The notes under the pieces were generated by a model. It searched no databases. It saw nothing but the letters and a program-made list of their open reading frames with translations, and was not told where the DNA came from. Shown here piece after piece: positions 3,654-48,972 of a stretch of 64,000 nt of DNA. Each line of letters begins with the position of its first letter. The first letter of the stretch is position 1. Both the position numbers and the translations under genes were made by a program. The stretch is taken from the UHGV virus genome UHGV-1550212; one strand, 5' to 3'. The stretch is from a virus.

Positions 3654-3681
3654 AAAGACCAGCTCAATTGAGCTGGTCTTT
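3654..3681 (-). terminator. Intrinsic terminator, 28-nt perfect palindrome
   Basis: AAAGACCAGCTCAATTGAGCTGGTCTTT; T-rich on sense strand downstream; lies between stop of 3705..7820 and start of sheath gene. Confidence 0.6.
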
Positions 3682-3704
3682 CAAATGCTGTTTAACTGTC
3701 ATCA

Positions 3705-15781: not shown

Positions 15782-16405
15782 TTATGCATTGGCAATTTCA
15801 GATGGCATTCTGAACTTGATGTCATTATACACAAATGTCAATGTGAATGTCATCACGTTCTGGTCTACACGAGTTTTGTCATATGTGAGTTCTGAAATTG
15901 CAGAAAACACGACATCAATGAAGTCGATGCCAAACAATGGTTTCTTTGCACCGCCATATGTCGCTACAAATCTGCAGGGCTGAAAGTAGATAGTTTCGCG
16001 TTTATCGTTAGCGTATCTGAACAAACTCTCTAAGCAACAAAAATAGCTTAAACCACCATTCGTCAATCTGCATGTCACCTGGATTCGCTTATCAAGTGCT
16101 TGATGAATTGTCTTGCTGCCCTTATGAAACTGTGTAATTGACTTCTTCATGCCACTGTCATCAAGAACTTTATTGACATTCTGAGTAACAATTGGCATCG
16201 ATATGCCCATCAATGACACAGACTGAATTGAATCATGCAACAAGTCATTGATGTCATAAATGATTTGTGTTGGTTGTTGCACAAACACTTTATTGTAAGT
16301 ATCAGCAATATCTTGCGGAATCAAATCAATTGGCAAGTCAAAGCGAAACTGGTCTGACCGTGTATCGAGAATGAGCATATTTTTGATAATTTGTTTATGT
16401 ACCAT
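15782..16405 (-). CDS. Hypothetical protein (207 aa)
   Basis: ATG at 16405 overlaps stop of upstream gene (TAATG). Confidence 0.6.
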   Translation of the reverse strand: MVHKQIIKNMLILDTRSDQFRFDLPIDLIPQDIADTYNKVFVQQPTQIIYDINDLLHDSIQSVSLMGISMPIVTQNVNKVLDDSGMKKSITQFHKGSKTIHQALDKRIQVTCRLTNGGLSYFCCLESLFRYANDKRETIYFQPCRFVATYGGAKKPLFGIDFIDVVFSAISELTYDKTRVDQNVMTFTLTFVYNDIKFRMPSEIANA

Positions 16406-17604
16406 TAACTGTCATACGACCAGTGACCACAGTCATACACTGGCACAAATCCAGTGTCAAGCATTTCTTGCTCAATAAAGCCATCATCAAGCAAATGTTC
16501 ACCTGACTTCGTATTGACCCAATGCTTCTTAATTGTGCATTCATCAACCACAAAGGGATTAAGTGCATTGTCAGTGCAATCAATGAACACATTATTCAAA
16601 TGCGCGTCAATGACATGCAGCACAATTTCTGGGTTGTGCCAATCAAATATCATAAGTGGCGTGTAGCCACATACAATTGCAAGTTGTTGCTTCCACCAAT
16701 GATAGTTTGGCTGTTTTGCTTCTGCGGCATTTCGTTTAAAGCCATACACGCTATTATGAGTATGCGTCGGGTTAACGTCAATTAGCAGATTGCCATAATA
16801 CAGGTCATATGATGTTATGCCAACATCATGTTCAAACTCAAAATGCACACCAAGATGTTCTTCAATGTATGATTGCCACCATCTGTTTGGCGCAGATATG
16901 ATTTGCCCATTTGCTTGCATACATTTATTTGTCATGCAAAACCATGGCACACCGTAACGTTCCATACAGGTTTTTGAAATTGCAGCAAGCCATTCATCTT
17001 TGTCTCTATGCGGCCATGCATAACCATAACGCAGACGACATGTTTGTTGAGCTTTAGCAACGATTGGCGCTAAACGTTCACCGTATATTTCACGTTTAGT
17101 TGCGATGGCTTTGCGTGGATTAGTCCATCCAGCATCACCCCATCGCTCAAGCTTCGTTTGCTGAGATTTTTCAACAATCAGTTCAAGATTCTCACCATAT
17201 TTTTGACGACGAGTTTGCATTGCTGCAACATAATCTGTAATGCATCTATGGCCATACAAACGTTCTTTTGTCGCACTATGTGCTTTATCGCCATATGAAC
17301 TGCCGTAGCGTGCAACTTTAGTGGCAATTGTTTGCTTGATGTTGCCTGCTTTAGAACCATAACGAGCTTCTTTAGTTGCTACGCATTTTTGTTTGACTTC
17401 TGCTCTGTTCCAATTATGCTCAACGCCATGTTTACGAAGATGGCCAATTTTCATGTTGTACACGTTTTTGATATGACCATGAGATGTCTTACGTGGTGCA
17501 TATCGTACAAATGGTGTTTCTGCAAGCAACTTATCTCGTTCAGCTTCAAGCTCTTTAATTCGAGCTTCAAGAGCTTCACCAGTCAAATGCTCTACATGTT
17601 TCAT
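16405..17604 (-). CDS. Repeat/nuclease-like protein, paralog of 10982..12220 (399 aa)
   Basis: GEALEARIKELEAERD; repeats ...TKEARYG...TKVARYG...KERLYG...REIYG...RLRYG...MERYG; C-terminus ...NLLIDVNPTHTHNS. Confidence 0.6.
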   Translation of the reverse strand: MKHVEHLTGEALEARIKELEAERDKLLAETPFVRYAPRKTSHGHIKNVYNMKIGHLRKHGVEHNWNRAEVKQKCVATKEARYGSKAGNIKQTIATKVARYGSSYGDKAHSATKERLYGHRCITDYVAAMQTRRQKYGENLELIVEKSQQTKLERWGDAGWTNPRKAIATKREIYGERLAPIVAKAQQTCRLRYGYAWPHRDKDEWLAAISKTCMERYGVPWFCMTNKCMQANGQIISAPNRWWQSYIEEHLGVHFEFEHDVGITSYDLYYGNLLIDVNPTHTHNSVYGFKRNAAEAKQPNYHWWKQQLAIVCGYTPLMIFDWHNPEIVLHVIDAHLNNVFIDCTDNALNPFVVDECTIKKHWVNTKSGEHLLDDGFIEQEMLDTGFVPVYDCGHWSYDS

Positions 17605-21137: not shown

Positions 21138-22430
21138 CTACAACAATGACGGCACTCGTTGAGTTTCAAGTGGGTCGCTGACATTGATGCCTGTGTATGC
21201 AACAAGTCGTTGTATTGGGCCAAGTACGAGTTTTTCGAACATGAGTCGTTTGTTCATTGGCGGCACATCTGGCATATACTTCGGTGTCGGCATTTCGCCT
21301 GGTGCAAAGCCAAATGCATCGCAATATTGACGAGAGCCAATTGGTATATTTGACAAATCTGACTTTGCTCTGTCAACAAAGTAGTAGAACACTCGACCGC
21401 CTTCAATCAATGGGTATCGTGTTTCCAATCCATGTGCTTTGACAAGACAGTTATGCCAACAACATGCTCTATATTGAGGCAGTACACCTTTTGCTAACTG
21501 CCATTCACCATCATAGCTTAGCACATAGTCATGATACTTGTTTGCATTGACATATGCACAAAGTTTCTCCAAGTCTTGCTCGGCTTCAAAGCGTTTCCAT
21601 AATTTCTGTATGAGCTTTGGATATGTCGCAGAAGTTAATTCGCCTCTGAACATTTTCTTGAATGCATAATCAAGCATTTGTCTAACAAGCATTGACGAGC
21701 CTGTTTGAATAAGTTCGATGCCTTTGCCTTGAATGTGCTCAGTAGGGTCTTCGAATACTCGACCATCTACATATATTTGAGCCTTTAAGTACTTTTTCTT
21801 TTGGGCAAATAATGCAGTGTCAGAAATCGTTTCGAGGTCAAATAGCAAAATTGAATTGCCGTGGCGTTTTGCGAGGTCTGCTGCATATGCACCATTGAAT
21901 AACTCTTCCATACGATATTTGAATATCGCAAGAATCAAGTCATACCAATTTTTGCCTATGTAGCCAATTGATTTGACAGTTGGCTCAAAGTGAATGTACA
22001 AAGAGTCTGTATCAATGTACAACACTTTGTCTTCATAAGGCTCTTGCTTTGGCGACACAGACAAATCAAAATTGCCCTTCAATTGTGGGTCATTACGCAG
22101 CTTTTCATGCAATTCATAATCACACCACCACTTATTGTTGAGATAGTCATTTGCTACTCGTTCACCAAAGTGAATGAAGTTGCGGCCTTCAGCAGTAATT
22201 GATTCTGCAACTGCCATATTAAAGAAGTGATAGAAACGATTGCTTGTAGCGCCATATATTGAGTTTCGACAACATTTTGCTGAGACTTGCAGTCCTGCAT
22301 GCTTTAGTGATTCTTGCATTGCAAAATCTCTCAATTCAAATAGACGTTCAGTAGACAACTGGCTTAAATCACCAGTCAAATCTACTCCATCTATTTCAAT
22401 TTTTGACATATCTATCTGAGCTTCTGCCAT
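21138..22430 (-). CDS. DNA polymerase family B, C-terminal fragment (motifs B and C)
   Basis: ...CCRNSIYGATS (KxxxNSxYG) and ...VLYIDTDSLYIHF (YxDTDS); 430 aa; own promoter upstream. Confidence 0.85.
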   Translation of the reverse strand: MAEAQIDMSKIEIDGVDLTGDLSQLSTERLFELRDFAMQESLKHAGLQVSAKCCRNSIYGATSNRFYHFFNMAVAESITAEGRNFIHFGERVANDYLNNKWWCDYELHEKLRNDPQLKGNFDLSVSPKQEPYEDKVLYIDTDSLYIHFEPTVKSIGYIGKNWYDLILAIFKYRMEELFNGAYAADLAKRHGNSILLFDLETISDTALFAQKKKYLKAQIYVDGRVFEDPTEHIQGKGIELIQTGSSMLVRQMLDYAFKKMFRGELTSATYPKLIQKLWKRFEAEQDLEKLCAYVNANKYHDYVLSYDGEWQLAKGVLPQYRACCWHNCLVKAHGLETRYPLIEGGRVFYYFVDRAKSDLSNIPIGSRQYCDAFGFAPGEMPTPKYMPDVPPMNKRLMFEKLVLGPIQRLVAYTGINVSDPLETQRVPSLL

Positions 22431-22451: not shown

Positions 22452-22481
22452 ATTGTACTACACATGTTGCAATTTTTGCAA
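22452..22481 (-). promoter_or_regulatory. Sigma70-like promoter (TTGCAA-N18-TACAAT)
   Basis: Direct reading; upstream of polymerase C-terminal gene. Confidence 0.45.
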
Positions 22482-22499
22482 TACACATGTTAAACCAAA

Positions 22500-22528
22500 A
22501 TGCAGCAGCAGATGTTCTGCTGCTGCAT
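22500..22528 (-). terminator. Intrinsic terminator after 22572..23399
   Basis: ATGCAGCAGCAGA-TGT-TCTGCTGCTGCAT, 13-bp perfect stem, T-rich sense downstream. Confidence 0.6.
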
Positions 22529-22571
22529 CGGCAGGTATCTTCACAATTGTTTGAGTTGATTGCAATGCGAT

Positions 22572-23399
22572 TTAGAATGGCAGGTCGCCATCATCACCTA
22601 CAGCATCAAAATCAGCAGCAATGTCATATACCAACGTCATTGCGATTCGCAAATCACGTTTCTTAGATTTCAGACGCATGATGTCATGACCTGAATTGTT
22701 TGTGATGACTGAGCATTCAAACTCTTCATTGCCGTCGATGAATGACAGCATTGATTTGTGAATTGTGATTGGCGACAAATCTGACGGATATGACGAATCA
22801 ATCACATATTCAAAGTTGTTGTTCTTGGCAATTAGGCCTCGTTCAGTTGTGCGAATCTCAATGCCGGGCAGTTCCTTGTCACCTGTATTCAATGAGCCAT
22901 ACGATGACATGATGCCAAAGTGATTTGACGTCAAATCGAGCTTTCTCAGATTTGTTGTGCTATCAAACAGCATTGACATATCATTGTCAGACAGCTCAAA
23001 GTAGCCAAGTGATGGCATTGAACAAACCTGATTGATTTTGAGCTGATTGTTTGAGATTACAATGAGCTCTGCAATTGTATCTGTACCAATTTGTTTGACA
23101 TAGATTTCAATCATTGCATATGAGCCAAATGCAGCAAGTACTCGATTGTTGAATTGCGTGCCATTGTAAATAAGCGCCTTGACTGTGACATCTTTGAGTG
23201 TAGACTCATAATGTTCGCAAATGTCAAGCACATTAAGTGTCTGCGACTTTACAAAGCTACTATTGCCAGCATCAGTTCTGATTCGCTGGTCATTGAGTGA
23301 AAAGCTAAGCTTGCCATCGCATTTTAATGATGATGCAAACAATGCTCGCAGCATATCAATGTTTGCATTGCGTAACGTAATTTTGTTCAGATTTTCCAT
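22572..23399 (-). CDS. Hypothetical protein (275 aa); possible sliding clamp
   Basis: ATG start; acidic C-terminus; size and location between polymerase halves; clamp assignment weak. Confidence 0.5.
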   Translation of the reverse strand: MENLNKITLRNANIDMLRALFASSLKCDGKLSFSLNDQRIRTDAGNSSFVKSQTLNVLDICEHYESTLKDVTVKALIYNGTQFNNRVLAAFGSYAMIEIYVKQIGTDTIAELIVISNNQLKINQVCSMPSLGYFELSDNDMSMLFDSTTNLRKLDLTSNHFGIMSSYGSLNTGDKELPGIEIRTTERGLIAKNNNFEYVIDSSYPSDLSPITIHKSMLSFIDGNEEFECSVITNNSGHDIMRLKSKKRDLRIAMTLVYDIAADFDAVGDDGDLPF

Positions 23400-23433
23400 C
23401 TTGTATCTATGTTGTTGATTTTCAATTTAATAT

Positions 23434-23462
23434 ATTGAACAACATTTGTTGACATTTTGCAA
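23434..23462 (-). promoter_or_regulatory. Sigma70-like promoter (TTGCAA-N17-TTCAAT)
   Basis: Direct reading; upstream of 22572..23399. Confidence 0.4.
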
Positions 23463-23467
23463 CATTG

Positions 23468-23842
23468 TCATCGATTGTCGCCTGACCCATGCAATACACC
23501 TCGCAATTTTCGAGACTGCAGTTTCTGAATGTTAAGCTGACAAATGTCAGTTAAGCTGTAGCCCAAATCATGTGCAAGAGTTGCAGCATACCACATGACA
23601 TCGCTGAGCTCTTTTGCGATTTCCTTGCGAATGTCTTCATTATCAAAATCACCATTCTTGTCTCGAATGACTTTTTTGACTTTGTCTGCAACTTCGCCTG
23701 CTTCACCCGTTAAGCCAAGTGTTGGATAGATAATTGCAGCTGATTTAGGATATACTGCGCTATCAAGCGCAGCAGTCTGATATTCATCAATAGTTGAAAT
23801 CCAAGTGTGGTCGATTACGCCGTGTTCATCTCGTTTAAGCAT
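23468..23842 (-). CDS. MazG-like nucleoside triphosphate pyrophosphohydrolase
   Basis: ...LTGEAGEVADKVKK...ELSDVMWYAATLA (MazG EExxE/D-type motifs). Confidence 0.6.
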   Translation of the reverse strand: MLKRDEHGVIDHTWISTIDEYQTAALDSAVYPKSAAIIYPTLGLTGEAGEVADKVKKVIRDKNGDFDNEDIRKEIAKELSDVMWYAATLAHDLGYSLTDICQLNIQKLQSRKLRGVLHGSGDNR

Positions 23843-23843
23843 A

Positions 23844-24335
23844 TCATTTACGTTTTTGTTTGACTCTTAATCGTTTTTGCATAAATGCTCTTGTAGCTTC
23901 ACCAAAAGCCATCTCGTCTCGTTCGCCACCACAAAGCTTTGCAAGCTTATTGAATGTGTCTTGGTCAATCATTGTGTACGTTGAGTTGTTGACCACATGC
24001 AATGCAAACTGAATCAGCGGTGCGCCTGGCTGCAAGCAGAATGGCTCTTTACCTGCATTGTACACTGCAAGATGAATCTCGCCATGATAGTCTGAATCTA
24101 CAAACTCACTTGTTTTGATGATAAGATGATTTCGTGAAATGCCCGACTTATTGTAGGCAATCAATGCATGACCGGCAGGCACAAGTGCTTTGATGCCAGA
24201 TGGAATTGCAATGCCCTCACCAGGTTGCAGCATTGTTTGCACAAAATCATTGGGTATGCAAAAGTCCCATGCGCCAGATTCTGCTGTTGACTTAAAAGGA
24301 CTTTCTACATTTCTGCATTTTGCAAAGAATAACAT
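23844..24335 (-). CDS. dUTPase-family protein (dUTPase or dCTPase)
   Basis: ...FVDSDYHGEIHLAVYN (dUTPase motif III-like). Confidence 0.6.
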   Translation of the reverse strand: MLFFAKCRNVESPFKSTAESGAWDFCIPNDFVQTMLQPGEGIAIPSGIKALVPAGHALIAYNKSGISRNHLIIKTSEFVDSDYHGEIHLAVYNAGKEPFCLQPGAPLIQFALHVVNNSTYTMIDQDTFNKLAKLCGGERDEMAFGEATRAFMQKRLRVKQKRK

Positions 24336-24358
24336 ATTAAGTATGTGTTTGTATGTTG

Positions 24359-24703
24359 TTAGTACATTTCTCGTTTAACAAGAGCTTTGCGTTTTGAGCG
24401 TAGCCCTGCCCTATTACGTAATTCTACTGACCAATCACGAATCATTTGCCATGCAATCCCACCACGTTGAATACCACCGTGCTTGAACATTTCATTGCAA
24501 ATACCTTGAATAAACACCGCATCAGACTTTGTCAATGCGTCAACAATTTGACCATGGTTGTCTTCTGTCTTGACATCATTGCAAAGCTTAAGCTCATCTA
24601 CTGAAAGTTCGCCAAGCAGCTCATAGTAGTATATGAGAGCTTTGCGTGCGGCAATTGCTTTTCTTGAATTGCCAGAATAAGACAAAGTCACATGTTTGCT
24701 CAT
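24359..24703 (-). CDS. Hypothetical protein (114 aa)
   Basis: Trimmed to ATG 24703. Confidence 0.5.
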   Translation of the reverse strand: MSKHVTLSYSGNSRKAIAARKALIYYYELLGELSVDELKLCNDVKTEDNHGQIVDALTKSDAVFIQGICNEMFKHGGIQRGGIAWQMIRDWSVELRNRAGLRSKRKALVKREMY

Positions 24704-24723
24704 ATTCAATTATTGTTATGGTG

Positions 24724-26229
24724 TTACAATTTGATTGCGCCTCTACGAGCAAGCTCTTCTTCAATCAATCGAACATGATTGTTAGCATACCAAAATTGCA
24801 ATTTTTTGTGATAATTGCGAACGTTGCCAAGCTGTTCTTGAGTTTCTTTATACATTGAAGGCTCTCTGTTGTCATACAGACAATTGTTGACTGACACAAA
24901 GTAATTTGGGTCTGCTTTGTAATGCTCAATTTCATCAGGATTTGTTAAACGTCTAATAAAGTTGTCTGGTGAAATATTCGCCGAGCGCATACTTGACGGA
25001 TACAATGAGTTTGCGTCAACACAGACAACCATACGAGCCCAATGGTTAAATGGTTGCTTAACAAAGCCGCCCTCAAATGAATGTACTACATTCTCTGGGC
25101 CACCTTGAGCACATACAACTTTGCCGCCATATTTGTTGTATAAGTATGTCATCATGACGCCCTCAGATTGCTTAACTGGTCCTTGGCAGTGATTCATGTC
25201 AATATTTGTCATATTTGACAATGACATCACATTTGATATCAAGTCAGTTTTTGCAGCAATCATTGCATTGACCATAGTATCGACAGCATTGTATGCAATG
25301 AATGTGCATGGATGATACAAATACAGCTCTTTAAGTGTGCAATCATAGGGCAACTTACCTACGCCGAACATACGATGTGCAATGTAGTCAAGTCGCAATG
25401 ATTCCTTTTGCCACACTGAATAGTCGTATGTGTCCATGAGCTGCATGTAGTCATCAATGTACTTGTGATATGGCATACCATTGCCCCAGACAGTTCTGCC
25501 AACTGGAGATGCCAATGCTAAATCAATATTGTGCATTGCGCATCGATTTTTGACATAGATGTTATCGAAGTCATTGATGTTCCAGCCTGTCAATGCAGGA
25601 ATGTTTTTGAAGAGCTTAGTCACCCAAAAATGCAACAATTCATGCTCATTTGCATGTTGAAAAATTTTGACAGTTGGATGTTCTTTCAAATACGCAGCAA
25701 AGCAATGTTGACCCATATACTCTTGAATGATGCCATTGACAAACTCAAATGCATCATCCAATGTTGGGTTTTGTTTGCCGCAGCTTTTGCGCAAATCATC
25801 ATCATTCAACAAGTCAACAGTAGTCTGAATGACACAATTGCATTGTTCATCGCATGTACTTATTGCATTAATGGGCATTTCAGCTTTGTCAGGCTTTGGA
25901 AAGCCATTGCCAATTTCAGTCTCAATATCGTAAAAGTACAACTTTGGTCTACGATAAGCAAACAATTCAGCTTTGTCAGCTTCAGGCAATTCAAATAAGA
26001 ATTGCAGCAAGTCAAATTGATTGAATCGTTTTGCTGTGACTCGAGTCACTGGCAATTTACGCCAATCTTGAATATCTGCATATTGAGGCTCTACGTGGTC
26101 TGATATTTGCCACACTGGAAATTGATATGGCTGTTCACAGACTGGGTATGTTTTGATGTCAATGCCACCTTGCTCATTAACATATGAGACTTCAATGCCA
26201 TGTGACAAATATGCTACGTCAACAATCAT
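24724..26229 (-). CDS. DNA polymerase family B, N-terminal fragment (3'-5' exonuclease + motif A)
   Basis: FYDIETE (Exo I), NINDFD (Exo II), YNAVD (Exo III), VDANSLYPS (motif A); 501 aa. Confidence 0.85.
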   Translation of the reverse strand: MIVDVAYLSHGIEVSYVNEQGGIDIKTYPVCEQPYQFPVWQISDHVEPQYADIQDWRKLPVTRVTAKRFNQFDLLQFLFELPEADKAELFAYRRPKLYFYDIETEIGNGFPKPDKAEMPINAISTCDEQCNCVIQTTVDLLNDDDLRKSCGKQNPTLDDAFEFVNGIIQEYMGQHCFAAYLKEHPTVKIFQHANEHELLHFWVTKLFKNIPALTGWNINDFDNIYVKNRCAMHNIDLALASPVGRTVWGNGMPYHKYIDDYMQLMDTYDYSVWQKESLRLDYIAHRMFGVGKLPYDCTLKELYLYHPCTFIAYNAVDTMVNAMIAAKTDLISNVMSLSNMTNIDMNHCQGPVKQSEGVMMTYLYNKYGGKVVCAQGGPENVVHSFEGGFVKQPFNHWARMVVCVDANSLYPSSMRSANISPDNFIRRLTNPDEIEHYKADPNYFVSVNNCLYDNREPSMYKETQEQLGNVRNYHKKLQFWYANNHVRLIEEELARRGAIKL

Positions 26230-26244
26230 ATATCATTATCTTTT

Positions 26245-26655
26245 TTAGAATAGAGATATTGTACAACAATTTGATTCAGGTTGCCATTCTACAATATGCG
26301 CATCAAAGTGTTTGTTAAGCCAATGTGCAAGTATGTGTCTATGACAAAATGCAGATAGTCTGCACCAACATAACAATACAATGTCTCGTTCGCCTGCAAG
26401 AATCTTTATGCGATGCAGCATCAAACTTATCTGTGACAATGCAGCGTCAAGTTTTGCTGCATATTGCTCTGCATATTGTGCATTGTCAAGCAAGCCTGCT
26501 TTATGCAAACGAACAAGTGACATGTAATCAGGCATGACGTCAGTCCATGTAAAATCTGCTATGAAGCCCTTAGGCTTTGTTGCAGACACTTGAACAAGAA
26601 ATGCGTTATCAGGCAGATGCCTGCATGCATAATATGAAGTTAAGATTCTTGTCAT
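26245..26655 (-). CDS. DUF488-like protein
   Basis: ...DIVLLCWCRLSAFCHRHILAHWL resembles DUF488 signature as recalled. Confidence 0.4.
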   Translation of the reverse strand: MTRILTSYYACRHLPDNAFLVQVSATKPKGFIADFTWTDVMPDYMSLVRLHKAGLLDNAQYAEQYAAKLDAALSQISLMLHRIKILAGERDIVLLCWCRLSAFCHRHILAHWLNKHFDAHIVEWQPESNCCTISLF

Positions 26656-27575
26656 TCTACAATAATTGTTGCAAGTTTGTTAATTGGCTGTATGAACACA
26701 TCAAAACCCTTAACAGTGCCGAACGCGTTTCGTTTGACTGCATATAACATTGCAGTGTTCACATCATGCTTTGCATAACGAGTTTCAATGACTTGACTGA
26801 TGTAGCCTTTTGAGTCTCGAATGTATTCTATGCTTGTAGCAATTTTGTTTGCTTTGATAGAATTTACTGTTATCAATGCATCATTCTGACCATACGCATA
26901 TTGCATTGTTGCTGTAGATGGCTTTGCAGCATTTACACTTAACTGCTGAATGACTTGCATTTTGCGACCATGCGAATCATAGTAATATGTGAATGTGCAT
27001 GGAAACTTGCCAACCAAACTGTTCAAATGATGCAACTGCTCATAATGATAGCTGAACTGCACTACACTGCTATTAGATTCGCAAATGCTGCTTGGTCTAT
27101 AGTAGCCATTGAAGTACCCATACTGAATTGAGTATGTTTCAAAACGACCTCTACGATACAAACTCAACAAACTAAGCATATTCGTCGCTTCATCAATATG
27201 CAAGAACTTGATGTCTGCGCATGCATTGCTCTTGGCATAATCAGCTGCATTCCACTTATCAACGACTTTCCAAGAGTAGCATTTGATGCTTTGATTGCGC
27301 TCATTGACAAAGTGTATACCATTTGACTGCACCTTTACAATGTCATAGCAATTCAAATGCCCATTACTGTCAATGAATTTTTGCAGCCAATTTAAAGCCA
27401 TGATGTTTGTTGCAAATGTCTGTGCAAATGCAATTTGGCCATCTGCAAATGCTGCAGTGTATGTCTTGTTCTTATCGTAGATTGGCAATGTCGCATCTGC
27501 ATATGATGCTGCTACAAATGCATAGCCAATCACATTATTCTCAGAACTCAAATTAGAGTGTCTTAACTGTTCCAT
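26652..27575 (-). CDS. Hypothetical protein (307 aa)
   Basis: ATG start, ATGA overlap. Confidence 0.6.
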   Translation of the reverse strand: MEQLRHSNLSSENNVIGYAFVAASYADATLPIYDKNKTYTAAFADGQIAFAQTFATNIMALNWLQKFIDSNGHLNCYDIVKVQSNGIHFVNERNQSIKCYSWKVVDKWNAADYAKSNACADIKFLHIDEATNMLSLLSLYRRGRFETYSIQYGYFNGYYRPSSICESNSSVVQFSYHYEQLHHLNSLVGKFPCTFTYYYDSHGRKMQVIQQLSVNAAKPSTATMQYAYGQNDALITVNSIKANKIATSIEYIRDSKGYISQVIETRYAKHDVNTAMLYAVKRNAFGTVKGFDVFIQPINKLATIIVE

Positions 27576-27772
27576 GTGCCATTACGCTTACGACGTTCAA
27601 TTTCTGCTTCAACGTCATCAATGTCGTGATTTATTTGAGCAAGACGAATGTCATTGTCGTACTCTTTAAGCAATTGTTCAAACAAATCTTCTTTGAACTG
27701 CTTCAAACGTTCATTTGAAAATGCTCTTACATTCATATCAAAGTCTACAGTCTTTTTCAAGTTTCTTGTCAT
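27563..27772 (-). CDS. Hypothetical small charged protein (69 aa)
   Basis: ATG start. Confidence 0.4.
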   Translation of the reverse strand: MTRNLKKTVDFDMNVRAFSNERLKQFKEDLFEQLLKEYDNDIRLAQINHDIDDVEAEIERRKRNGTWNS

Positions 27773-28307
27773 TTATGACTGCATTCAACAAATAATTGAC
27801 ATGCTTACATGAATGACGATACATAAAGCCTGGGCAATCACAATATGCTTGCATTGATTCAGGATATAACACAAGTACATGTGAATTGCCTCGTGAGCCA
27901 AAGACCTTGTACTTGACTGGCGCTGTTGGCATGCCAATCAAATTGTTAATGTCTTGTGAATGCCTGATATTATGCAGTTGTTTAAGTGAAACCCAGTGTT
28001 CTGCGGCTTCAGTAGCAGACATCAAATCAATGCCAAATGCTTGTTTGTATTGTTGTTTGCAAAACAATTGCCATTTGTGTGCATATACAGAGTTCTTTTG
28101 CAGCATCTCTTTATGCAACAAATACTCTTCAATGTATCTTGGCTGCCAACGAGTTGACCATGACACAAATTCAGGCACAAACTGAATGTCTTCAAGAGTT
28201 GTGCCTGCTGGTACAGAATGCCAAGCATCACCTGTGCATGCATAAGTACCGGTCGTTGTTACAATTATTGCCGGATTACATTTGCCAATGATTTGAATCT
28301 TGTCCAT
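27738..28307 (-). CDS. SWIM zinc-finger protein
   Basis: ...YCDCPGFMYRHSCKHV (CxCxnCxH). Confidence 0.5.
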   Translation of the reverse strand: MDKIQIIGKCNPAIIVTTTGTYACTGDAWHSVPAGTTLEDIQFVPEFVSWSTRWQPRYIEEYLLHKEMLQKNSVYAHKWQLFCKQQYKQAFGIDLMSATEAAEHWVSLKQLHNIRHSQDINNLIGMPTAPVKYKVFGSRGNSHVLVLYPESMQAYCDCPGFMYRHSCKHVNYLLNAVINDKKLEKDCRL

Positions 28308-28350
28308 CTTATTTATGATTTGATGTCTTGTTATATTATTATATGTTGAT

Positions 28351-28379
28351 ATTGTACAACGCTAAGTGTCATTTTGCAC
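28351..28379 (-). promoter_or_regulatory. Sigma70-like promoter (GTGCAA-N17-TACAAT)
   Basis: Direct reading; upstream of 27738..28307. Confidence 0.45.
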
Positions 28380-28548
28380 TATCGCCGCCAATTTTTATTG
28401 ATGGCGTTGCAAACAATGCAAGCAAACACCAGCCACTTTTAGTAACTGCACAAGCAACTGCTATTGCAGCAAAGAAGCTTGCATAAATGATTGCTGCAGC
28501 AAGCCAACTTGTTTTATCGCTACATTTGTTGTTCGATGAGTTCTCCAT
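28369..28548 (-). CDS. Small hydrophobic protein (59 aa), not in ORF track
   Basis: ATG 28548; MENSSNNKCSDKTSWLAAAIIYASFFAAIAVACAV...; stop falls inside the -35 box of the promoter. Confidence 0.3.
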   Translation of the reverse strand: MENSSNNKCSDKTSWLAAAIIYASFFAAIAVACAVTKSGWCLLALFATPSIKIGGDSAK

Positions 28549-28771
28549 TGATAATGTCTTTTCTGATGTAAACGCCCTTTAATGTTGGATGCTGCTGTAC
28601 AAATGTCATGTGACCAATAACATGCACTTTGTGATTTTTGGGCAGTACAATGCCATACTCGAATATGGCATGAGTATCTGTAAATCGTAACAGTTTTACT
28701 GGAGATGTAACACAATTGACGAAGTATAGCTTGCCAACTTGCGCATCTGCTGCTTTGATTTTGTCTTTCAT
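28520..28771 (-). CDS. Hypothetical protein (83 aa)
   Basis: Internal ATG of ORF 28520..28810. Confidence 0.4.
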   Translation of the reverse strand: MKDKIKAADAQVGKLYFVNCVTSPVKLLRFTDTHAIFEYGIVLPKNHKVHVIGHMTFVQQHPTLKGVYIRKDIINGELIEQQM

Positions 28772-28773
28772 TG

Positions 28774-29052
28774 TTATGCAATTTGAGTGCTGGCGTATTT
28801 TACTAGCCAAGCGTACACGTCATAATGAAAAATCTTCACATAATGTGGCATGCTAAAGCATTCACCGCAGCTACAATGAGCGTCAATATTACCTGTAATG
28901 ACATTGTACGTCAGCCGAACAATTTCATATGACTCAGAACCCATTTGACAATGCTGCTTAATGTCAATTGTTCTGCCAAATCGCTTACGAAACCATATTA
29001 CAAGCTGAGCATACAACTCATCAACGTTTGATGTCATTGAGCAATCTTTCAT
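28774..29052 (-). CDS. Hypothetical Cys-containing protein (92 aa)
   Basis: ATG start; ...HCSCGEC... Confidence 0.45.
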   Translation of the reverse strand: MKDCSMTSNVDELYAQLVIWFRKRFGRTIDIKQHCQMGSESYEIVRLTYNVITGNIDAHCSCGECFSMPHYVKIFHYDVYAWLVKYASTQIA

Positions 29053-29524
29053 ATGCGCAAGGATATTCAGGATTTGTCAGTATATGTTTGATGAACTGTT
29101 TAAGCTGCATTTTGCTGTCGAATGCTTGAACTGCAGGCTTGCCAACAAATTTGAGATATTTAATTGCTTCTTTAGCAAATTTGCCTGCAGAATTGCTGTC
29201 AAGCATTATGTATGATGTCAGAGTATCAATCATAAAAATGCTTCGCCAACTTGGTGCGCCGCAAATGACTTCTACTGCATTTCTGTTAGGAATGCGTCGT
29301 ACACGCACATTAAGAATAGTCATCAAGTCATTCCAAGATGCATCTCTGCATGTACATGGCTGCAAGTTCCGCTGACGTGTCATATGACACCAATACAAAA
29401 TTGTGTTTGCAGGCAATTCTGCTCGTTCAGCTTTGCTAAGCTTATGGCCATCTGCTGCATAGACTGCTTGTCTGCTAATTTGAACAGAGCTAAGCTTGCC
29501 TCGTTTGTGCGTAACTGCTACCAT
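29021..29524 (-). CDS. Hypothetical protein (167 aa)
   Basis: ATG start. Confidence 0.5.
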   Translation of the reverse strand: MVAVTHKRGKLSSVQISRQAVYAADGHKLSKAERAELPANTILYWCHMTRQRNLQPCTCRDASWNDLMTILNVRVRRIPNRNAVEVICGAPSWRSIFMIDTLTSYIMLDSNSAGKFAKEAIKYLKFVGKPAVQAFDSKMQLKQFIKHILTNPEYPCAYERLLNDIKR

Positions 29525-29916
29525 GTCTTTGCGTAGTTAATGAGCTGCTTAATATCACAGAATACAGGATTGTCGTACGCAGACTTGTTGTAATCGAAGA
29601 TGACACAAATGTTGTTGCCAAGCAATCTGCAGTTGCCATAGATTTTTGCAATCTTTGTGTTACGTTTATTGTCAACGCAAATATTGATTGCTCGTACTTT
29701 CATGACATCAAGCCACTGACCAGTACATTCATTCTGAACTGCAGATGGTTCACAAGTTGGCAATGCAAGCACATATGTCTTACCACTGTCAAGTCGTTCA
29801 ATGACTTCACCATGATATTGAGGTTCAAGAATGTTGATGCCATTGACATCAGGATTTGCTGTTCGTAATGCAACTTTCAATTCTTCTGTAGTTGCGTTGT
29901 AATTTATTCTGTACAT
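29518..29916 (-). CDS. Hypothetical protein (132 aa)
   Basis: ATG start. Confidence 0.5.
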   Translation of the reverse strand: MYRINYNATTEELKVALRTANPDVNGINILEPQYHGEVIERLDSGKTYVLALPTCEPSAVQNECTGQWLDVMKVRAINICVDNKRNTKIAKIYGNCRLLGNNICVIFDYNKSAYDNPVFCDIKQLINYAKTW

Positions 29917-29931
29917 ATCTATTGATATTTG

Positions 29932-30168
29932 TTATTCGAAATCCGTGTCATCTGCATTTTCATTAGGGTCATAGATAAGCCATACAAATGCTGCACAGCC
30001 AAGTATGAATAAGCCTCCGCCAATGATTGTCGTAAAAACCGAACCAATCCAATGCTTCATAATATCACCGAGCGGATTCAATGTTTCATAGCCAATCATA
30101 AATGCGACAAATACAACTATTATTGCTGCTATTGCTTTGTTTGTGGTATTTCGTTTTATTGTTGCCAT
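29932..30168 (-). CDS. Small membrane protein (78 aa)
   Basis: Trimmed to ATG 30168 (MATIKRNTT...); two hydrophobic segments. Confidence 0.5.
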   Translation of the reverse strand: MATIKRNTTNKAIAAIIVVFVAFMIGYETLNPLGDIMKHWIGSVFTTIIGGGLFILGCAAFVWLIYDPNENADDTDFE

Positions 30169-30199
30169 TGTAGTAGAGGTTTGTTGTGTTCTGTATATT

Positions 30200-30221
30200 A
30201 TGTTCGAATATATGAGGACAT
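30200..30221 (-). promoter_or_regulatory. Leader palindrome ATGTTCGAATATATGAGGACAT (copy 1 of 3)
   Basis: Between promoter 30237..30265 and start codon 30168; near-identical copies at 47427 and 54380. Confidence 0.5.
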
Positions 30222-30236
30222 ATATTATATATAGAT

Positions 30237-30265
30237 ATATTACAACACGCAAATCATTTTTGCAC
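30237..30265 (-). promoter_or_regulatory. Sigma70-like promoter (GTGCAA-N17-TAATAT)
   Basis: Direct reading. Confidence 0.4.
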
Positions 30266-30291: not shown

Positions 30292-30597
30292 ATGCAAACA
30301 CAAGAAGTTTTAGATGCAATTGACATGTCGCAGTCAGCTCGCAATTATGCGCTTGGCACTGTATGCGATGCAGAAGAGCATGAAGATGCTGTTGAAGCAG
30401 TTATCGAAGATTACATGCAAGGCGCAAGAGAAATGTACGTCAAGCTGACTACATTTGTCAATGTTAATGATGCAGTGCCTGCAAACAACTACCCAGTCAT
30501 TGCAAAGCTTGCAAATGACTCATATGCAGTTGCAACGTTTGAAAATGACATGTGGTCTGTCGACAACGTAGTTGCATGGCGCAAGTTGCACATTTAA
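30292..30597 (+). CDS. Hypothetical acidic protein (101 aa)
   Basis: ATG start; one of only three plus-strand genes; convergent with 30660..33965. Confidence 0.5.
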   Translation: MQTQEVLDAIDMSQSARNYALGTVCDAEEHEDAVEAVIEDYMQGAREMYVKLTTFVNVNDAVPANNYPVIAKLANDSYAVATFENDMWSVDNVVAWRKLHI

Positions 30598-30615
30598 GCC
30601 CTACAGCACAAAAAA

Positions 30616-30636
30616 AGTCCGAGCATTGCTCGGACT
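30616..30636. terminator. Bidirectional intrinsic terminator
   Basis: A6-AGTCCGAGC-ATT-GCTCGGACT-T7. Confidence 0.75.
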
Positions 30637-30659
30637 TTTTTTGTTGTGCATTGATTGGC

Positions 30660-33600
30660 CTATCGAACAATCGATGTAATTGATGCTACTGGTATCGTAC
30701 CAATGATTGATGTAGTTGAGCGGAAGTCTGCATAGACTTTAATGTCAAATGTGAACTCCTTGCCACCAATGTAGCATATGAAATTCATTGTTTTTGTGTA
30801 TGACAGCTTATTTTGCTGAGCATTGCTATCAATATCAGATGAACCAACTGCATCAGTCATACGAGCTTGGAACAGCAATGGTATCAACAATGCATTATTT
30901 TCGCCAGGCTTAACTACATAAGCTGCAGAATCAGTGCTATTCGAAACTTGCATTTGATTGACTGCAGTTGGATTCAACAACAAGAATGCACCACGACTAT
31001 TTGCACCAACTGCATAGACATCATTGTCTGTGAATGCACATTTAGGTGCGTTTTCTGCAGTAAGTTCAAGTGGCAGAATCTGCTGATACTTTGATTTGAT
31101 GACAGAATTGAACTTAGCAAGCTCTGCAAATGCTGCAGTCAATGTTGCTTTTGTTTGTTCATTCTTATTTGCTGAGTATGCAATCCATGCTGGATGCTGA
31201 ACAGACATCAGATTGTATGCATCTGGTGATACTGTCGACTTCAATGCGATTGCTTCATAATCATCGCCATTCTTATGAACGAACTTGCGATTTGCTGCTT
31301 GTGCAGAAGTATCAATGTTTTGTGTTTCTACAGTAGACGATGATGGTGTTTCTGCAGCAACGTACAGCTTTTCTGTGCCTGCTACGTTTTTCAAGCCAGC
31401 ATACAATGTTTGACCCATGTATTGACGAGTGCCATACGGTGCTAAGATGTCATTGCTGTCATATGCATCGCTGTTAAGTACAACAGGTACGTCATAGACA
31501 TCTGCGAAATCTTGCAGCTTGTCTGTAATATGCTGTGACAAGTCGCCATGATATCGTGGGTACAATGAGATGTTTTCTGCACCAATGTTGTAGAACTTCA
31601 ACCAATATTGTCGAGTAAGCACTTTGCCATAGTTGTCTGCTGAAGTGATGTCAAACTTATCTGCATAAGTGCCTGCAAACAAAACATTGCTTGACCCATT
31701 CAGAATTTCTGTTTGATTGCCCTCATCATCTACAATTGCGACTCGAAGCATTGAGCCTTGATTCAAAATGATGTCTTTGAGCTGCGCAACTTCATTGCTA
31801 AGCGACAGTAGTTTTTCATATGTAGTCACTTTTGCAAGCTCTGATGTGAAGAAGCCTGATGCAATGTTTTGAGCATTGTGGGCGTAGTAGATGTTGTTTT
31901 CTGAGAATGCATCTGCAATATGCTTGATAAGTCCTTTGTTCTCAAGCATATTTTCAAGAGCCACATTTTGCTTATCAATTGCAAGTTCATCTTTAAGCGT
32001 GACGAACATTGCAGAAGCTGCAAGACTTTCTGGGAACTGAATGCTGACAATGTTTGACCACTCAGACTCATTGAGCACGTTTGGATAGCCTGCTTCACCA
32101 ATCGCCTTAACGCGGAACTGAACAATCTCATTAGCAGAAATTGGAATTTCAAGCTGATTGCATGAGATTGCGTCAATTGATTCTGAATTGATTGGCTCCC
32201 ATTGAATGCTACCATCGACAATGATTTTGCGACGAAGTGGCGTAAATACTTCATTCCATGTGCTAAATGCTGCTGTCGTAATTGTGCCTGCTGCATTTTC
32301 GATGTCAAATGTGTCTGCCTTTGCTACTGTGCCATTCAATGATGCATATCTGTACTGCACCTTGAATTGCACAATGTTTTGTGCTGCAGTAAACCTACTG
32401 ATTGCAGGGTCTTGTACCGGTAAGAAGCCTCGAACTCTGAACTTTGGATTGTACAATGCGTCATATGCAGCACCATTGATATTCAGCATCTCATCAATGA
32501 TATTTGTGAGTGTTTGCAGTCGTTCTGCTCTTTGCTGAGTCAATGTAACATATTGTGTAGATGCTTTTTGACGTTCAACGTCATTCTTGAAATTATTTGT
32601 ATTGAGCTTTGACATCACAGATGCGATATCAGAGTCAAGTACCGACATTTCTTGCTGAACTGCTCGTTTTTGATTGTACAATGACAAAATTCGAGATTTG
32701 TCAGTGTTGTCAATCAAATGCGTGTTAAGTTGAATGACTTTGAATGCTTCTGCTGACAATTGTAGACGATTTGGCTTAATTGCATATTGCGATGGCGCAA
32801 GCATATCAGTAGTCAATGCTGCAATATAAGCGCCAATTGATGCGTCGCCATGTGACAACATATACGAGTTTGCATTGACAAGCTCATTTGTTGCAGTACG
32901 AATTGTAAGTGTTGCAGTGTCAATCAAAACTGCTGGGCTGTACTGAGCTACTGTGTTGTATGCATCATGCACAGGCGACAAGAACAGCACGAATTTTTCA
33001 GAATGTCGAAGTGGCACTTCAACGACTTTTCTAACAACAGGCTCTACAAAGACGAGGTCAGTGACTTCTACATTCAATGCATTCAAGCCTGCAGTACGCT
33101 GCAGTATGCATGTTTGTGACAGTTTGTCAATTGAGACAATTTGCAGTAATACTGAACCAGTCGGGTCTGATAACGTGTCACCGACTTTCAATGTCAGTGA
33201 ACCGGCAGCCTTTGCGTCAATTGCATCATATACAATGCTGTCAAGTTTGACAGCGATTGTGCCATTGTTCGCATTTTGCTTCTTGAGAATTTTGAAGCTG
33301 CCACTTGATGCTGCTCGTCGTGGTCGCAAATTAACTGTGAAGTCTTCAAGAGTATAGTCATCATCAGTATGCCAGCCATGCGCATCAATTTCAGCAAGCA
33401 ATGCAGCATGGCTCATTTCAATGCCTGTTTGTGCCACAATTTGCTGCAATGCAGCAAACATGGCGTCTGAGCATATGTACTTTGTAACTTGACATTGTTT
33501 AAGATACGATGATGCTTGACCAGTCACATCAATTTGCACGTGCATACCAAGCGCTGTTGTGCGTTCAAGCATATCATTGCCAAGTGCGACAACATTGTTA

Positions 33601-33965
33601 TCTTCTGCTATCGTGCCTTGCAAAGTTTTCAAAGTCTCAGGCTGATTCAACAAGCTCATATGCACCATTGTACGCATATTGTTGTTTGCATCTACAAGTT
33701 GTGCATACAACTGCTCGCCATTATTTAAGCCTGTCAAGACTTTCATGTTTTGCTCAATGACAGCCATGCGACGTTGAATTGACGCAAAGCTTGGTACAGT
33801 AATGCTTGTTGTGCTGCCATCGTCATTTGTCAATGTTATTGTGACTGTATCTTCTGATGATGACACTGCAGCTTGCAGCACATCAAGGTATTGCAGACTA
33901 TTGTCATACAGTTGCTTAATGTCTGACAGCAATTGTTGCATTGCATTTGTTGAAACTTCTGACAT
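30660..33965 (-). CDS. Large virion protein (1101 aa), tail/baseplate candidate
   Basis: Trimmed to ATG 33965 (MSEVSTNAMQQ); size and neighbourhood only. Confidence 0.6.
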   Translation of the reverse strand: MSEVSTNAMQQLLSDIKQLYDNSLQYLDVLQAAVSSSEDTVTITLTNDDGSTTSITVPSFASIQRRMAVIEQNMKVLTGLNNGEQLYAQLVDANNNMRTMVHMSLLNQPETLKTLQGTIAEDNNVVALGNDMLERTTALGMHVQIDVTGQASSYLKQCQVTKYICSDAMFAALQQIVAQTGIEMSHAALLAEIDAHGWHTDDDYTLEDFTVNLRPRRAASSGSFKILKKQNANNGTIAVKLDSIVYDAIDAKAAGSLTLKVGDTLSDPTGSVLLQIVSIDKLSQTCILQRTAGLNALNVEVTDLVFVEPVVRKVVEVPLRHSEKFVLFLSPVHDAYNTVAQYSPAVLIDTATLTIRTATNELVNANSYMLSHGDASIGAYIAALTTDMLAPSQYAIKPNRLQLSAEAFKVIQLNTHLIDNTDKSRILSLYNQKRAVQQEMSVLDSDIASVMSKLNTNNFKNDVERQKASTQYVTLTQQRAERLQTLTNIIDEMLNINGAAYDALYNPKFRVRGFLPVQDPAISRFTAAQNIVQFKVQYRYASLNGTVAKADTFDIENAAGTITTAAFSTWNEVFTPLRRKIIVDGSIQWEPINSESIDAISCNQLEIPISANEIVQFRVKAIGEAGYPNVLNESEWSNIVSIQFPESLAASAMFVTLKDELAIDKQNVALENMLENKGLIKHIADAFSENNIYYAHNAQNIASGFFTSELAKVTTYEKLLSLSNEVAQLKDIILNQGSMLRVAIVDDEGNQTEILNGSSNVLFAGTYADKFDITSADNYGKVLTRQYWLKFYNIGAENISLYPRYHGDLSQHITDKLQDFADVYDVPVVLNSDAYDSNDILAPYGTRQYMGQTLYAGLKNVAGTEKLYVAAETPSSSTVETQNIDTSAQAANRKFVHKNGDDYEAIALKSTVSPDAYNLMSVQHPAWIAYSANKNEQTKATLTAAFAELAKFNSVIKSKYQQILPLELTAENAPKCAFTDNDVYAVGANSRGAFLLLNPTAVNQMQVSNSTDSAAYVVKPGENNALLIPLLFQARMTDAVGSSDIDSNAQQNKLSYTKTMNFICYIGGKEFTFDIKVYADFRSTTSIIGTIPVASITSIVR

Positions 33966-34001
33966 ATGCTTAAAATGTGGTGTTTGAATATGTACAAACA
34001 A

Positions 34002-34033
34002 AAAGACTGCTGCAAATTATTGCAGCAGTCTTT
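34002..34033 (-). terminator. Intrinsic terminator, 14-bp perfect stem
   Basis: AAAGACTGCTGCAA-ATTA-TTGCAGCAGTCTTT. Confidence 0.65.
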
Positions 34034-43783: not shown

Positions 43784-44842
43784 TTACTGCTTCAAGCCTG
43801 TGAACAGTTCATACTTGAATGCAGGCCCTGCTGTGTAAGCCTCAAAGTAGAAGTCACCAATATTGATGCTTGCAATAGCGTCATCGACAGCTTTCTTGTA
43901 GCCTACACGTTCAATTGTCTGCTTATCGCATTTACGCCAATATGTGCTGTGCATCATAAGCGTGGGTGATGCAGCATAGTCTACTGCAAGCTGTTGTTTT
44001 GCAGTGTCAATGTGATGTTCATAGATGTGCACATCATTGCCAGTCCAAATGAACTCTCTTGCCACACAGTTAGTCAATGTTGCAACAATATGTGTAAGCA
44101 ATGCATATGATGCGATATTGATGGGCACACCAAGACACATGTCACAGCTACGCTGAGTAAGCGCACAGTCAAGCCACATGCTTGGTACTTGAGCAGAATC
44201 AAGGCATTCTGCAGAACCATCATGCACAAGCATGCTATCATTAGCAATCTGAATTCGTTCTTCAAGAGTCATTGGCTGACAATTGAACTGAAACAGCATA
44301 TGACATGGCGGCAATGCCATCTGAGACATTTGCGCAGGATTCCATGCAGACACGACTTTGTAGCGGCCAGTTGGATTGATGACAATGTCTTTAATGCAAG
44401 TTGCAAGTTGGTCAAATCCACTGTCATTGAAGTTGCGCCACTGATACCCATAGATAGGTCCGCAATCACCATACTCAGGTTTGCTGAATTTTGTGTTGTG
44501 CAGTTCTGTGCACCAAGTGTCAAAGTCGACATCTTCACCTGGATGCAGCTTTTGCCAATGACGATATGCATCCTGATGCCAGAACTTTGTAATGCCAAGC
44601 GTGTCAAGCGTTTTGACATTAGTGTCACCTGACATAAACCACAGAAGTTCTCCAATGACGCCTTTGACAAACATTCTCTTGGATGTCAACAGTGGAAAGC
44701 CTTTACGCAAATCAAATCGCATTGATTCTACAAACAATGACTTTGTGCGAGGCATGTTTTCACGAGCAGGTTCCTTAAATCTGCCATGCTCAATAACATT
44801 ATTAAGTACTCTCAAGTACTCAGTGTCGTGTTTGATATTCAT
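43784..44842 (-). CDS. thyA: Thymidylate synthase (ThyA family) with an internal insertion
   Basis: FPLLTSKRMFVKGVIGELLWFMSG, GPIYGYQWRNF, ALPPCHMLFQF, QRSCDMCLGVPINIASYALL; Asn at the pyrimidine-specificity position. Confidence 0.8.
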   Translation of the reverse strand: MNIKHDTEYLRVLNNVIEHGRFKEPARENMPRTKSLFVESMRFDLRKGFPLLTSKRMFVKGVIGELLWFMSGDTNVKTLDTLGITKFWHQDAYRHWQKLHPGEDVDFDTWCTELHNTKFSKPEYGDCGPIYGYQWRNFNDSGFDQLATCIKDIVINPTGRYKVVSAWNPAQMSQMALPPCHMLFQFNCQPMTLEERIQIANDSMLVHDGSAECLDSAQVPSMWLDCALTQRSCDMCLGVPINIASYALLTHIVATLTNCVAREFIWTGNDVHIYEHHIDTAKQQLAVDYAASPTLMMHSTYWRKCDKQTIERVGYKKAVDDAIASINIGDFYFEAYTAGPAFKYELFTGLKQ

Positions 44843-47407: not shown

Positions 47408-47448
47408 TCTAAATGAGATTTAGATTATGTTCGAATATATGAGAACAT
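47408..47448 (-). promoter_or_regulatory. Leader element: inverted repeat TCTAAAT-GAG-ATTTAGA plus palindrome ATGTTCGAATATATGAGAACAT (copy 2)
   Basis: Immediately upstream of helicase ATG; near-identical to 54361..54402. Confidence 0.5.
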
Positions 47449-47465
47449 ATATTATTTGTAAAAAT

Positions 47466-48947: not shown

Positions 48948-48972
48948 ATTTTGGGATGTTTGTTTTTTATTA

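Follow-up and report, generated by a model that had tools for sequence, protein, structure and literature searches.

In the 64,000-nt stretch of the virus genome UHGV-1550212 analyzed here (the window), positions 26245-30168 hold a cassette of ten short open reading frames (ORFs), o1 to o10, all on the minus strand and with products of 59, 69, 78, 83, 92, 132, 136, 167, 189, and 307 aa [Table 1]. In the order of transcription, o10 is the first and o1 the last. The cassette is flanked on one side by the gene for the N-terminal part of a family-B DNA polymerase (PolB-N) and on the other by a gene encoding a 1113-aa protein. An earlier note on this DNA described ten short ORFs of 59-307 aa between a polymerase N-terminal gene and a large virion gene. 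The coordinates and the flanks hold, apart from the doubt about o5 as a gene that is discussed below and from the label "virion", which is no more than putative for the 1113-aa protein.

Table 1. Positions of the cassette ORFs and of the genes and sequence elements around them
Feature	Position	Strand	Size or sequence	Remark
o10	29932-30168	-	78 aa	
o9	29518-29916	-	132 aa	
o8	29021-29524	-	167 aa	
o7	28774-29052	-	92 aa	
o6	28520-28771	-	83 aa	
o5	28369-28548	-	59 aa	
o4	27738-28307	-	189 aa	
o3	27563-27772	-	69 aa	
o2	26652-27575	-	307 aa	
o1	26245-26655	-	136 aa	
Bidirectional intrinsic terminator	30610-30645	.	GTCCGAGC-AAT-GCTCGGAC	between A-run and T-run
Promoter-like motif	30223-30246	-	GTTGTAATATATCTATATATAATA	upstream of o10
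Promoter-like motif	28337-28360	-	GTTGTACAATATCAACATATAATA	in 61-nt gap upstream of o4
Promoter-like motif, other copies	54404-54427; 58151-58174; 61796-61819			first copy upstream of SbcCD-like gene
Promoter/leader element	30197-30228	-	32 nt; ATAATATATGTCCTCATATATTCGAACATAAT	contains 7-bp inverted repeat ATATATG/CATATAT
Leader, second copy	47424-47455			upstream of helicase gene (45530-47407)
Leader, third copy	54377-54409			upstream of SbcCD-like gene (50432-54358)
Downstream genes	22470-26229	-		PolB-N 24724-26229, 116-aa ORF, dUTPase-like 23844-24335, MazG 23468-23842, 275-aa ORF
Polymerase C-terminal gene (PolB-C)	21138-22430			
1113-aa gene	30660-34001		1113 aa	
Lone ORF	30292-30597	+	101 aa	
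Strong intrinsic terminator	34002-34033			directly upstream of 1113-aa gene start
Strong intrinsic terminator	3650-3690			downstream of 1399-aa gene

Gene content and conservation of the cassette

The ten ORFs fill 98% of the interval on one strand, leaving 78 of its 3924 nt noncoding. Neighboring ORFs overlap at six of the nine internal junctions (by 7, 32, 29, 35, 13, and 4 nt). The earlier description of all stops and starts as overlapping is wrong because the o10/o9, o7/o6, and o5/o4 junctions carry gaps of 15, 2, and 61 nt, respectively. None of the ten proteins has a paralogue at another place in the window, and neither a tRNA nor an Rfam family was detected in it.

The coding nature of the ORFs was assessed by comparison with related contigs, i.e., L003 (a 175.5-kb IMG/VR contig, 94.5% identical to the window and collinear with it), the two further close relatives L007 and L008, and L005, a much more divergent 3.5-kb contig found by protein search with o4 (protein P0004). 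Relative to L003, substitutions in the cassette at codon positions 1, 2, and 3 number 29, 26, and 150, such that 150 of 205 (73%) fall at third positions, and the codon changes comprise 135 synonymous and 54 nonsynonymous ones. Similar patterns were obtained with L007 and L008, and none of the ten ORFs has a premature stop in these three contigs. Constraint is strong, as judged by the ratio of synonymous to nonsynonymous changes relative to L003, for o4 (22:8), o2 (30:10), o10 (13:4), and in particular o7, where purifying selection is stronger than in any other member (25:2, with 18:0 in L007 and 20:3 in L008). Moreover, the gene order in L005, o10-o9-o8-o7-o6-o4-o2-o1, is the same as in the window, with amino acid identities of 51% for o10, 38% for o9, 48-54% for o8, 56% for o7, 57% for o6, 69% for o4, 37% for o2, and 57% for o1; o3 and o5 are not present there. 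Since both order and sequence are kept in L005, the eight genes are robust, and at least eight of the ORFs (o10, o9, o8, o7, o6, o4, o2, and o1) are real genes under purifying selection.

The opposite view would be that much of the cluster is annotation noise, consisting of chance short ORFs in AT-rich DNA or of decaying pseudogenes, and o5, o3, and o8 lend themselves to it. The hydrophobic o5 has codon-position substitutions (0/3/4, 4/0/6, and 4/0/4) with no clear bias and is not called by gene callers on contigs identical to the window, and its place in L005 is taken by an 82-nt spacer that contains a hairpin. Four close relatives carry o5 intact; as a gene, it is doubtful. The charged and helical o3, which shares 35 nt with o4 and 13 nt with o2, is confined to the close lineage of the window (in L005, o4 and o2 are only 14 nt apart). 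Relative to L003, it carries seven synonymous changes and one nonsynonymous change, and it is probably a lineage-specific gene. In the case of o8, the reading frame is shifted in L003 and meets a TAG in L005. Against the noise explanation stand the order and the 37-69% identity that eight ORFs keep in L005, the excess of third-position changes, the frames free of premature stops in the close relatives, and the dense packing on one strand. For eight of the ten ORFs this explanation fails, and for the cluster at large its probability is close to negligible.

The irregularities in o8 deserve a separate comment. In L003, a 1-nt deletion near the equivalent of window position 29101 alters the last ~20 residues, and in the L005 homologue an in-frame TAG (L005 991-993) occupies the position of W98, with the C-terminal 25 residues still conserved. 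Stop-codon recoding in L005 was ruled out because the o2 gene of L005 terminates at TAG at the orthologous position.

With respect to the origin of the DNA, near-identical sequence was absent among 50,697 phage records; contigs identical to the window were found in assemblies ERR1137001 and ERZ28666419. PolB-N shows at most 36% identity to isolated phages. Its closest matches come from Chryseobacterium phages MA9V-1 and MA9V-2, followed by Tenacibaculum PTm1/PTm5/pT24, Sphingomonas PAU, uncultured phages of 460-735 kb, and the Prevotella Lak megaphages. The 1113-aa protein belongs to the core gene set of precisely this group and is "hypothetical" in every phage carrying it. The source is an uncultured jumbo phage of the PAU/PTm1/MA9V/Lak-related group, and its host probably belongs to the gut Bacteroidota.

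Protein families and conserved residues

The clearest family assignment concerns o1. Compared with the Pfam model DUF488-N3a (PF22751), o1 scores 37.5 bits (cut-off 27, E 3.4e-9) over model positions 13-116 of 118, with weaker Pfam matches to DUF488 and DUF4326 and a match to phrog_2450 (4e-17). PF22751 is also carried by all nine database relatives of o1. In a 10-sequence alignment, T6, S7, Y8, Y9, A10, D91-C96, H105, and R106 do not vary and C104 is conserved at 90%, and o1 has all the motifs of the "active" subclade (TSYYA, DIVLLC, and FCHRH). In this context, one 95%-identical database variant of o1 (P0007) carries Tyr at the motif position Cys104. The AlphaFold2 (AF2) model of o1, built from the alignment of its relatives (predicted local distance difference test score, pLDDT, 87.9; predicted template modeling score, pTM, 0.82), adopts a predicted rhodanese/phosphatase-type Rossmann-like fold, which is common to protein tyrosine phosphatases (PTP)/dual-specificity phosphatases, the RapZ C-terminal domain, and tetrapyrrole methylases. 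The score above the Pfam cut-off, the motifs, and the modeled fold agree with one another and bear out the earlier claim of a DUF488-like protein in the cluster. Judged by these predictions, o1 is an enzyme-like DUF488-N3a protein of the rhodanese-phosphatase superfamily and a new member of an uncharacterized enzyme family. Burroughs and Aravind are said to have predicted, in 2023, a role in DNA-end processing for DUF488-N3 proteins. For the DUF4326 clade, Iyer et al. predicted that it acts in viruses on phosphates linked to the ribose of ADP-ribose derivatives and processes them (PMC9503650).

Relatives of o1 at 43 further loci are stand-alone ORFs of 64-214 aa, mostly 115-180 aa. Their neighbors are varied and include NrdD together with an NrdG-like gene, an RNA-polymerase-like gene, PcfJ, DUF7484, and a SLOG/YAcAr gene. 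Isolated phages with such relatives are jumbo phages only (Lak, phiKZ-like, and the Vibrio phages pVa-21 and pVp-JHP1101), and the nearest relatives in genome bins are mostly from Bacteroidales, Prevotella, and Clostridia, several of these bins being named gut or rumen. In the window, o1 begins within the last 4 nt of o2 (ATGA), and its end lies 15 nt upstream of PolB-N. The o1 gene differs from L003 (9579-9989) at 3 of 411 nt (99.3% DNA identity) with flanking genes at 92-95%. Since it is near-identical to L003 and 91-94% identical to L007 and L008, this pattern suggests that o1 may have been exchanged by recent recombination among close relatives.

The most conserved member of the cassette is o4. 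Its C-terminal part carries a SWIM-type signature, C156-D-C158-x8-C167-K-H169, that does not vary among three sequences, the most divergent of which is 69% identical. The earlier note had named a SWIM zinc-finger protein, and for this claim the motif stands and the family score does not; the window protein and its L005 orthologue reach 15.2 and 15.5 bits, respectively, against the Pfam SWIM model (PF04434), which has a cut-off of 19.6. The window protein also matches phrog_29279, "zinc-finger domain protein", weakly (2.7e-4). The predicted model places strands at residues 142-148 and 153-157 and a helix at 168-178 in the SWIM region, with a pLDDT of 42-54 there. Relatives of the 145-aa N-terminal part were not detectable. 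A word-indexed search of 5.8 billion proteins returned relatives of o4 only at 94% and 69% identity and of o2 only at 92-95%, and tblastn of o2 and o4 against the 50,697 phage records gave no match at E <= 1. Two contigs from a metagenome scan (L009 and L010) were dropped as o4 relatives, the match being a chance one inside an unrelated terminase gene. A further observation concerns the BFVD entry A0A8S5RT10, a 257-aa predicted viral protein that is structurally similar to o1 and annotated as "SWIM-type domain-containing". This protein may be a DUF488-SWIM fusion, or its annotation may stem from a match of the SWIM profile to the CxC...CHRH motif. A true fusion would link o1 and o4 functionally.

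As for the wider claim of Cys-rich or zinc-binding proteins, it is upheld for o4, for o8, and perhaps for o1 (CxC-x5-CHRH); most Cys residues of o9 and half of those in o7 are not conserved. o8 is basic (pI 9.8) with four invariant Cys (C46, C57, C59, and C88). The acidic o10 has two predicted transmembrane segments (hydrophobic windows) and is called by gene callers. The basic o6 has a conserved start at ATG 28771 (83 aa according to gene callers, with the L005 start close by), and an alternative upstream TTG start at 28810 would make a protein of 96 aa. In contrast to o7, o9 evolves fast and close to neutrality, with synonymous/nonsynonymous changes of 3/9 relative to L003 and 9/12 relative to L008. 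A match of o9 to TATA-box-binding protein (NCBIfam, E 0.0012) was dropped, as a PDB profile search gave no support. Comparison of o2 residues 12-97 with o9 residues 21-89 (hhalign, E 1.2e-4) suggests that the o2 N-terminus and o9 may share a domain. Besides, o2 is beta-rich, and its C-terminal half has a weak YD-repeat-like periodicity. An exhaustive search of 1.84 billion proteins yielded three relatives of o2 (at 95%, at 38%, and a YD-repeat protein). The alignment of o2 residues 162-248 with the last of these, a genuine YD-repeat protein, has a phmmer E value of 4.9e-4 and an hhalign probability of just 17.6%, and Pfam RHS_repeat does not match o2 at E <= 0.1. Family profiles of o2, o4, o6, o7, o8, and o9 found nothing below E 0.26 among PDB sequences, and the ORFs other than o1 and o4 have no meaningful match in Pfam, PHROGs, NCBIfam, PADLOC, or PDB sequences.

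Transcription signals and neighboring genes

The predicted bidirectional terminator between the cassette and the 1113-aa gene has folding energies of -26.2 kcal/mol (z -7.7) on one strand and -26.5 kcal/mol (z -8.6) on the other. It ends the transcript of the 1113-aa gene and that of a convergent plus-strand ORF. Read from its sequence and fold, this terminator sets the upstream boundary of the cassette transcription unit and separates the cassette from the 1113-aa gene. The plus-strand ORF itself stands alone, points toward the 1113-aa gene and away from o10, and encodes an acidic protein; it is kept in L003 and called by gene callers, and has no family match.

A phage-specific 24-nt promoter-like motif with the consensus GTTGTA-N12-TATAATA is matched four times in the window against a chance expectation of 0. 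Upstream of o10, it was found as a pattern match in the identical contig L001 (7330-7353), aligns with three other upstream regions, and is kept in L003. Upstream of o4, a recognizable version is retained even in the divergent L005. A sigma-70 promoter scan was uninformative (31 found versus 32.4 expected in shuffles). The 123-nt divergent spacer upstream of o10 also contains the leader element, for which 0 copies are expected by chance. The second copy, upstream of the helicase gene, differs at one base (C at o10, T at the helicase gene), and the third, upstream of the SbcCD-like gene, is one base longer. The leader, with its AT inverted repeat, may act as an operator. Neither motif nor leader was found before the sheath, protease, baseplate, or 1113-aa genes in the window. 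In addition, the structural genes appear to be divided by terminators, two strong ones of which are listed in Table 1, and no copy of the replication-class promoter lies between them.

From o4 onward, o3, o2, and o1 continue via overlapping or 15-nt junctions into PolB-N, and no terminator follows o1 before a hairpin-plus-U at about 22480-22530, ahead of PolB-C. Therefore, o4-o1 would most simply be the front of an operon that runs into PolB-N, the 116-aa ORF, the dUTPase-like gene, MazG, and the 275-aa ORF. Two features indicate membership in a replication-class transcription unit, namely, a promoter and leader in common with replication genes and a terminator toward the 1113-aa gene. Together with the continuity of o4-o1 into PolB-N, they suggest that the cassette probably belongs to the replication expression class, presumably with early/middle timing.

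These signals also bear on the idea that the small genes encode virion or assembly proteins and belong with the adjacent morphogenesis genes (for the 1113-aa protein, a gp13-like neck protein, and the baseplate). The cassette does adjoin a block with the gp13-like neck protein and baseplate genes, structural genes are scattered in jumbo phages, and the beta-rich o2 has its weak YD-repeat-like signal. However, a strong terminator and a separate promoter lie between the cassette and the 1113-aa gene, the promoter class is that of replication genes rather than structural genes, none of the ten proteins matches a structural PHROGs or Pfam family, and MA9V-1 lacks counterparts of them although its structural core genes are conserved. 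Because of the terminator, the promoter class, and the missing counterparts where the structural core is conserved, we regard a structural role as very improbable.

Several features of the neighborhood are worth recording. The family-B DNA polymerase is split into PolB-N (phrog_2062, 2e-61) and PolB-C, with four genes in between, i.e., the 116-aa ORF, the dUTPase/DCD-like gene, MazG, and the 275-aa ORF, which is related to MA9V1_137. The polymerase of MA9V-1 and PTm1 is split likewise, with an intein and a Vsr endonuclease annotated between the parts. Directly after PolB-N, L003 (11515-12714) and L008 (5504-6697) have a 399-aa gene with repeated (K/R)YGN motifs that is not present at this place in the window. 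It looks like a homing endonuclease, is 40% identical to the window ORF 16405-17604, and has at its end a promoter-motif copy of its own. The window also has two thymidylate-synthase-like genes, a dCMP deaminase, two sub-threshold GT47/exostosin-like proteins, the dUTPase-like gene, and MazG (43784-44842, 48066-49088, 61751-62476, 54780-56018, 59060-60616, and 23468-24335), a set that possibly represents a pathway for pyrimidine hypermodification or glycosylation.

Possible roles and comparison with known systems

Collectively, these data lead us to read the region as a lineage-specific accessory cassette within the replication and nucleotide-metabolism module of a jumbo phage, with a probability of roughly one-half. 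One family could be assigned and nothing points to an anti-defense role; therefore, an ordinary accessory cassette of this kind is the reading we prefer. In this scenario, the cassette would be expressed as two sub-operons, o10-o6 (possibly with o5) and o4-o1 continuing into PolB-N and beyond, both in the same early/middle replication class. The one enzyme would be o1, with its Cys/His/Arg motifs, produced alongside the polymerase and nucleotide-pool enzymes and transferring or removing phosphate on a ribose, a nucleotide, or a nucleic-acid terminus. o4 would act as a zinc-finger adaptor binding DNA or a protein partner, and the basic o8, with its four invariant Cys, might bind nucleic acid. 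o10, plus o5 if real, would insert in the membrane, and the fastest-evolving members, o2 and o9, which possibly share a domain, would contact a variable host component.

Several points weigh against this reading. Seven of the ten products are without any family, and for this reason the roles given to them are guesses from composition. We found no biochemical activity for any DUF488-N3a protein in the literature. The AF2 model of o4, built from three sequences, is poor (pLDDT 59), and a Foldseek search with it gave no match at E <= 0.001. The relation between o2 and o9 has a probability of only 56%. Finally, the promoter motif is defined by recurrence and position alone, and 10 nt separate its -35-like box from its -10-like box, which is not sigma-70 spacing.

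A different expectation, raised in the earlier note, is that several or all members are host-takeover or anti-defense factors that inhibit host immunity or shut off host functions early in infection. What stood of that early-cluster reading is that the genes form a non-late unit (probably), are small lineage-specific orphans, and in part evolve fast. In this respect, o2 and o9 (37-38% identity in L005) diverge much faster than o4 (69%), and o9 has nonsynonymous:synonymous ratios of 9:3 and 12:9. MA9V-1 has unrelated small genes in the same slot, and one o1 relative adjoins a SLOG/YAcAr gene. It has also been proposed, as a prediction, that the DUF488/DUF4326 clade processes ADP-ribose-derived molecules in virus-host conflicts (PMC9503650). 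What did not stand is the link to known families. None of the ten proteins matches an anti-restriction, anti-CRISPR, host-takeover, or defense-related family beyond chance level in PHROGs, Pfam, NCBIfam, or PADLOC, and the PADLOC matches are all partial and weak (E >= 3.6e-4, <= 18 bits). Moreover, the cassette is stably syntenic in its lineage and not hypervariable, most members are under ordinary purifying selection, and the coupling of o4-o1 to polymerase and nucleotide-pool genes fits a replication-accessory role equally well. The members do not all turn out to be structural or housekeeping proteins either. We therefore consider a takeover or anti-defense role for several or all members rather unlikely. 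A narrower version, in which the o4-o1 sub-operon is a new counter-defense or DNA-protection module, appears improbable. Here, the SWIM protein o4 and the fast-evolving o2 would guide o1, which would be made together with the split polymerase and would remove or transfer phosphate on nucleotide-derived immune signals or nucleic-acid ends.

If the accessory-cassette reading is correct, the region is a well-delimited case of something common, namely, a group of small genes restricted to one lineage and set within a large phage's replication module, here with a DUF488-N3a protein placed directly upstream of a split family-B polymerase and near dUTPase and MazG genes. A substrate for o1, if found, would aid the annotation of its relatives in Lak megaphages, phiKZ-like phages, and gut Bacteroidales/Clostridia contigs. 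In practical terms, o1, o4, o8, o2/o9, and o10 are candidates with defined starts, promoter-like motifs, and orthologues for screens of gut jumbo phages.

Comparison with known proteins places o1 with most DUF488-N3a relatives in being a stand-alone protein of ~130 aa in phage or mobile-element DNA. It differs from the family consensus in having CWC instead of CYE, which results in a CxC-x5-CHRH arrangement found in few relatives, and from its close relatives, which have P where o1 has L100. o4 resembles SWIM zinc-finger proteins in its CxCxnCxH signature and weak model matches, and departs from them in its score below the Pfam cut-off, its N-terminal part without relatives, and its poor model.

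At the level of the locus, MA9V-1 has nine small same-strand genes (MA9V1_126-134, 90-314 aa) in the same slot, with the 1113-aa protein orthologue (31% identity) on one side and that of PolB-N (36%) on the other. None of the nine has BLASTP similarity to o1-o10, such that the position is common and the content is not; one of them, judged by eye, resembles an HD phosphohydrolase. In PTm1, the arrangement at the slot is different again. No relatives of o2-o10 were found near the o1 relatives at the 43 further loci (viral contigs and genome bins). Because the MA9V-1 slot genes are unrelated and the o1 relatives elsewhere stand alone, the cassette is not, as far as gene content indicates, a conserved multi-gene system.

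Early small-gene regions are a feature of large lytic phages, e.g., the pre-early and early ORF clusters of T4. The cassette differs from T4-type early regions in that none of its members is related to a characterized T4-type host-takeover or anti-restriction protein and in that it is known from sequence alone. It resembles them in its dense, partly overlapping small ORFs with few database relatives, in having its own promoters, and in its location near replication genes.

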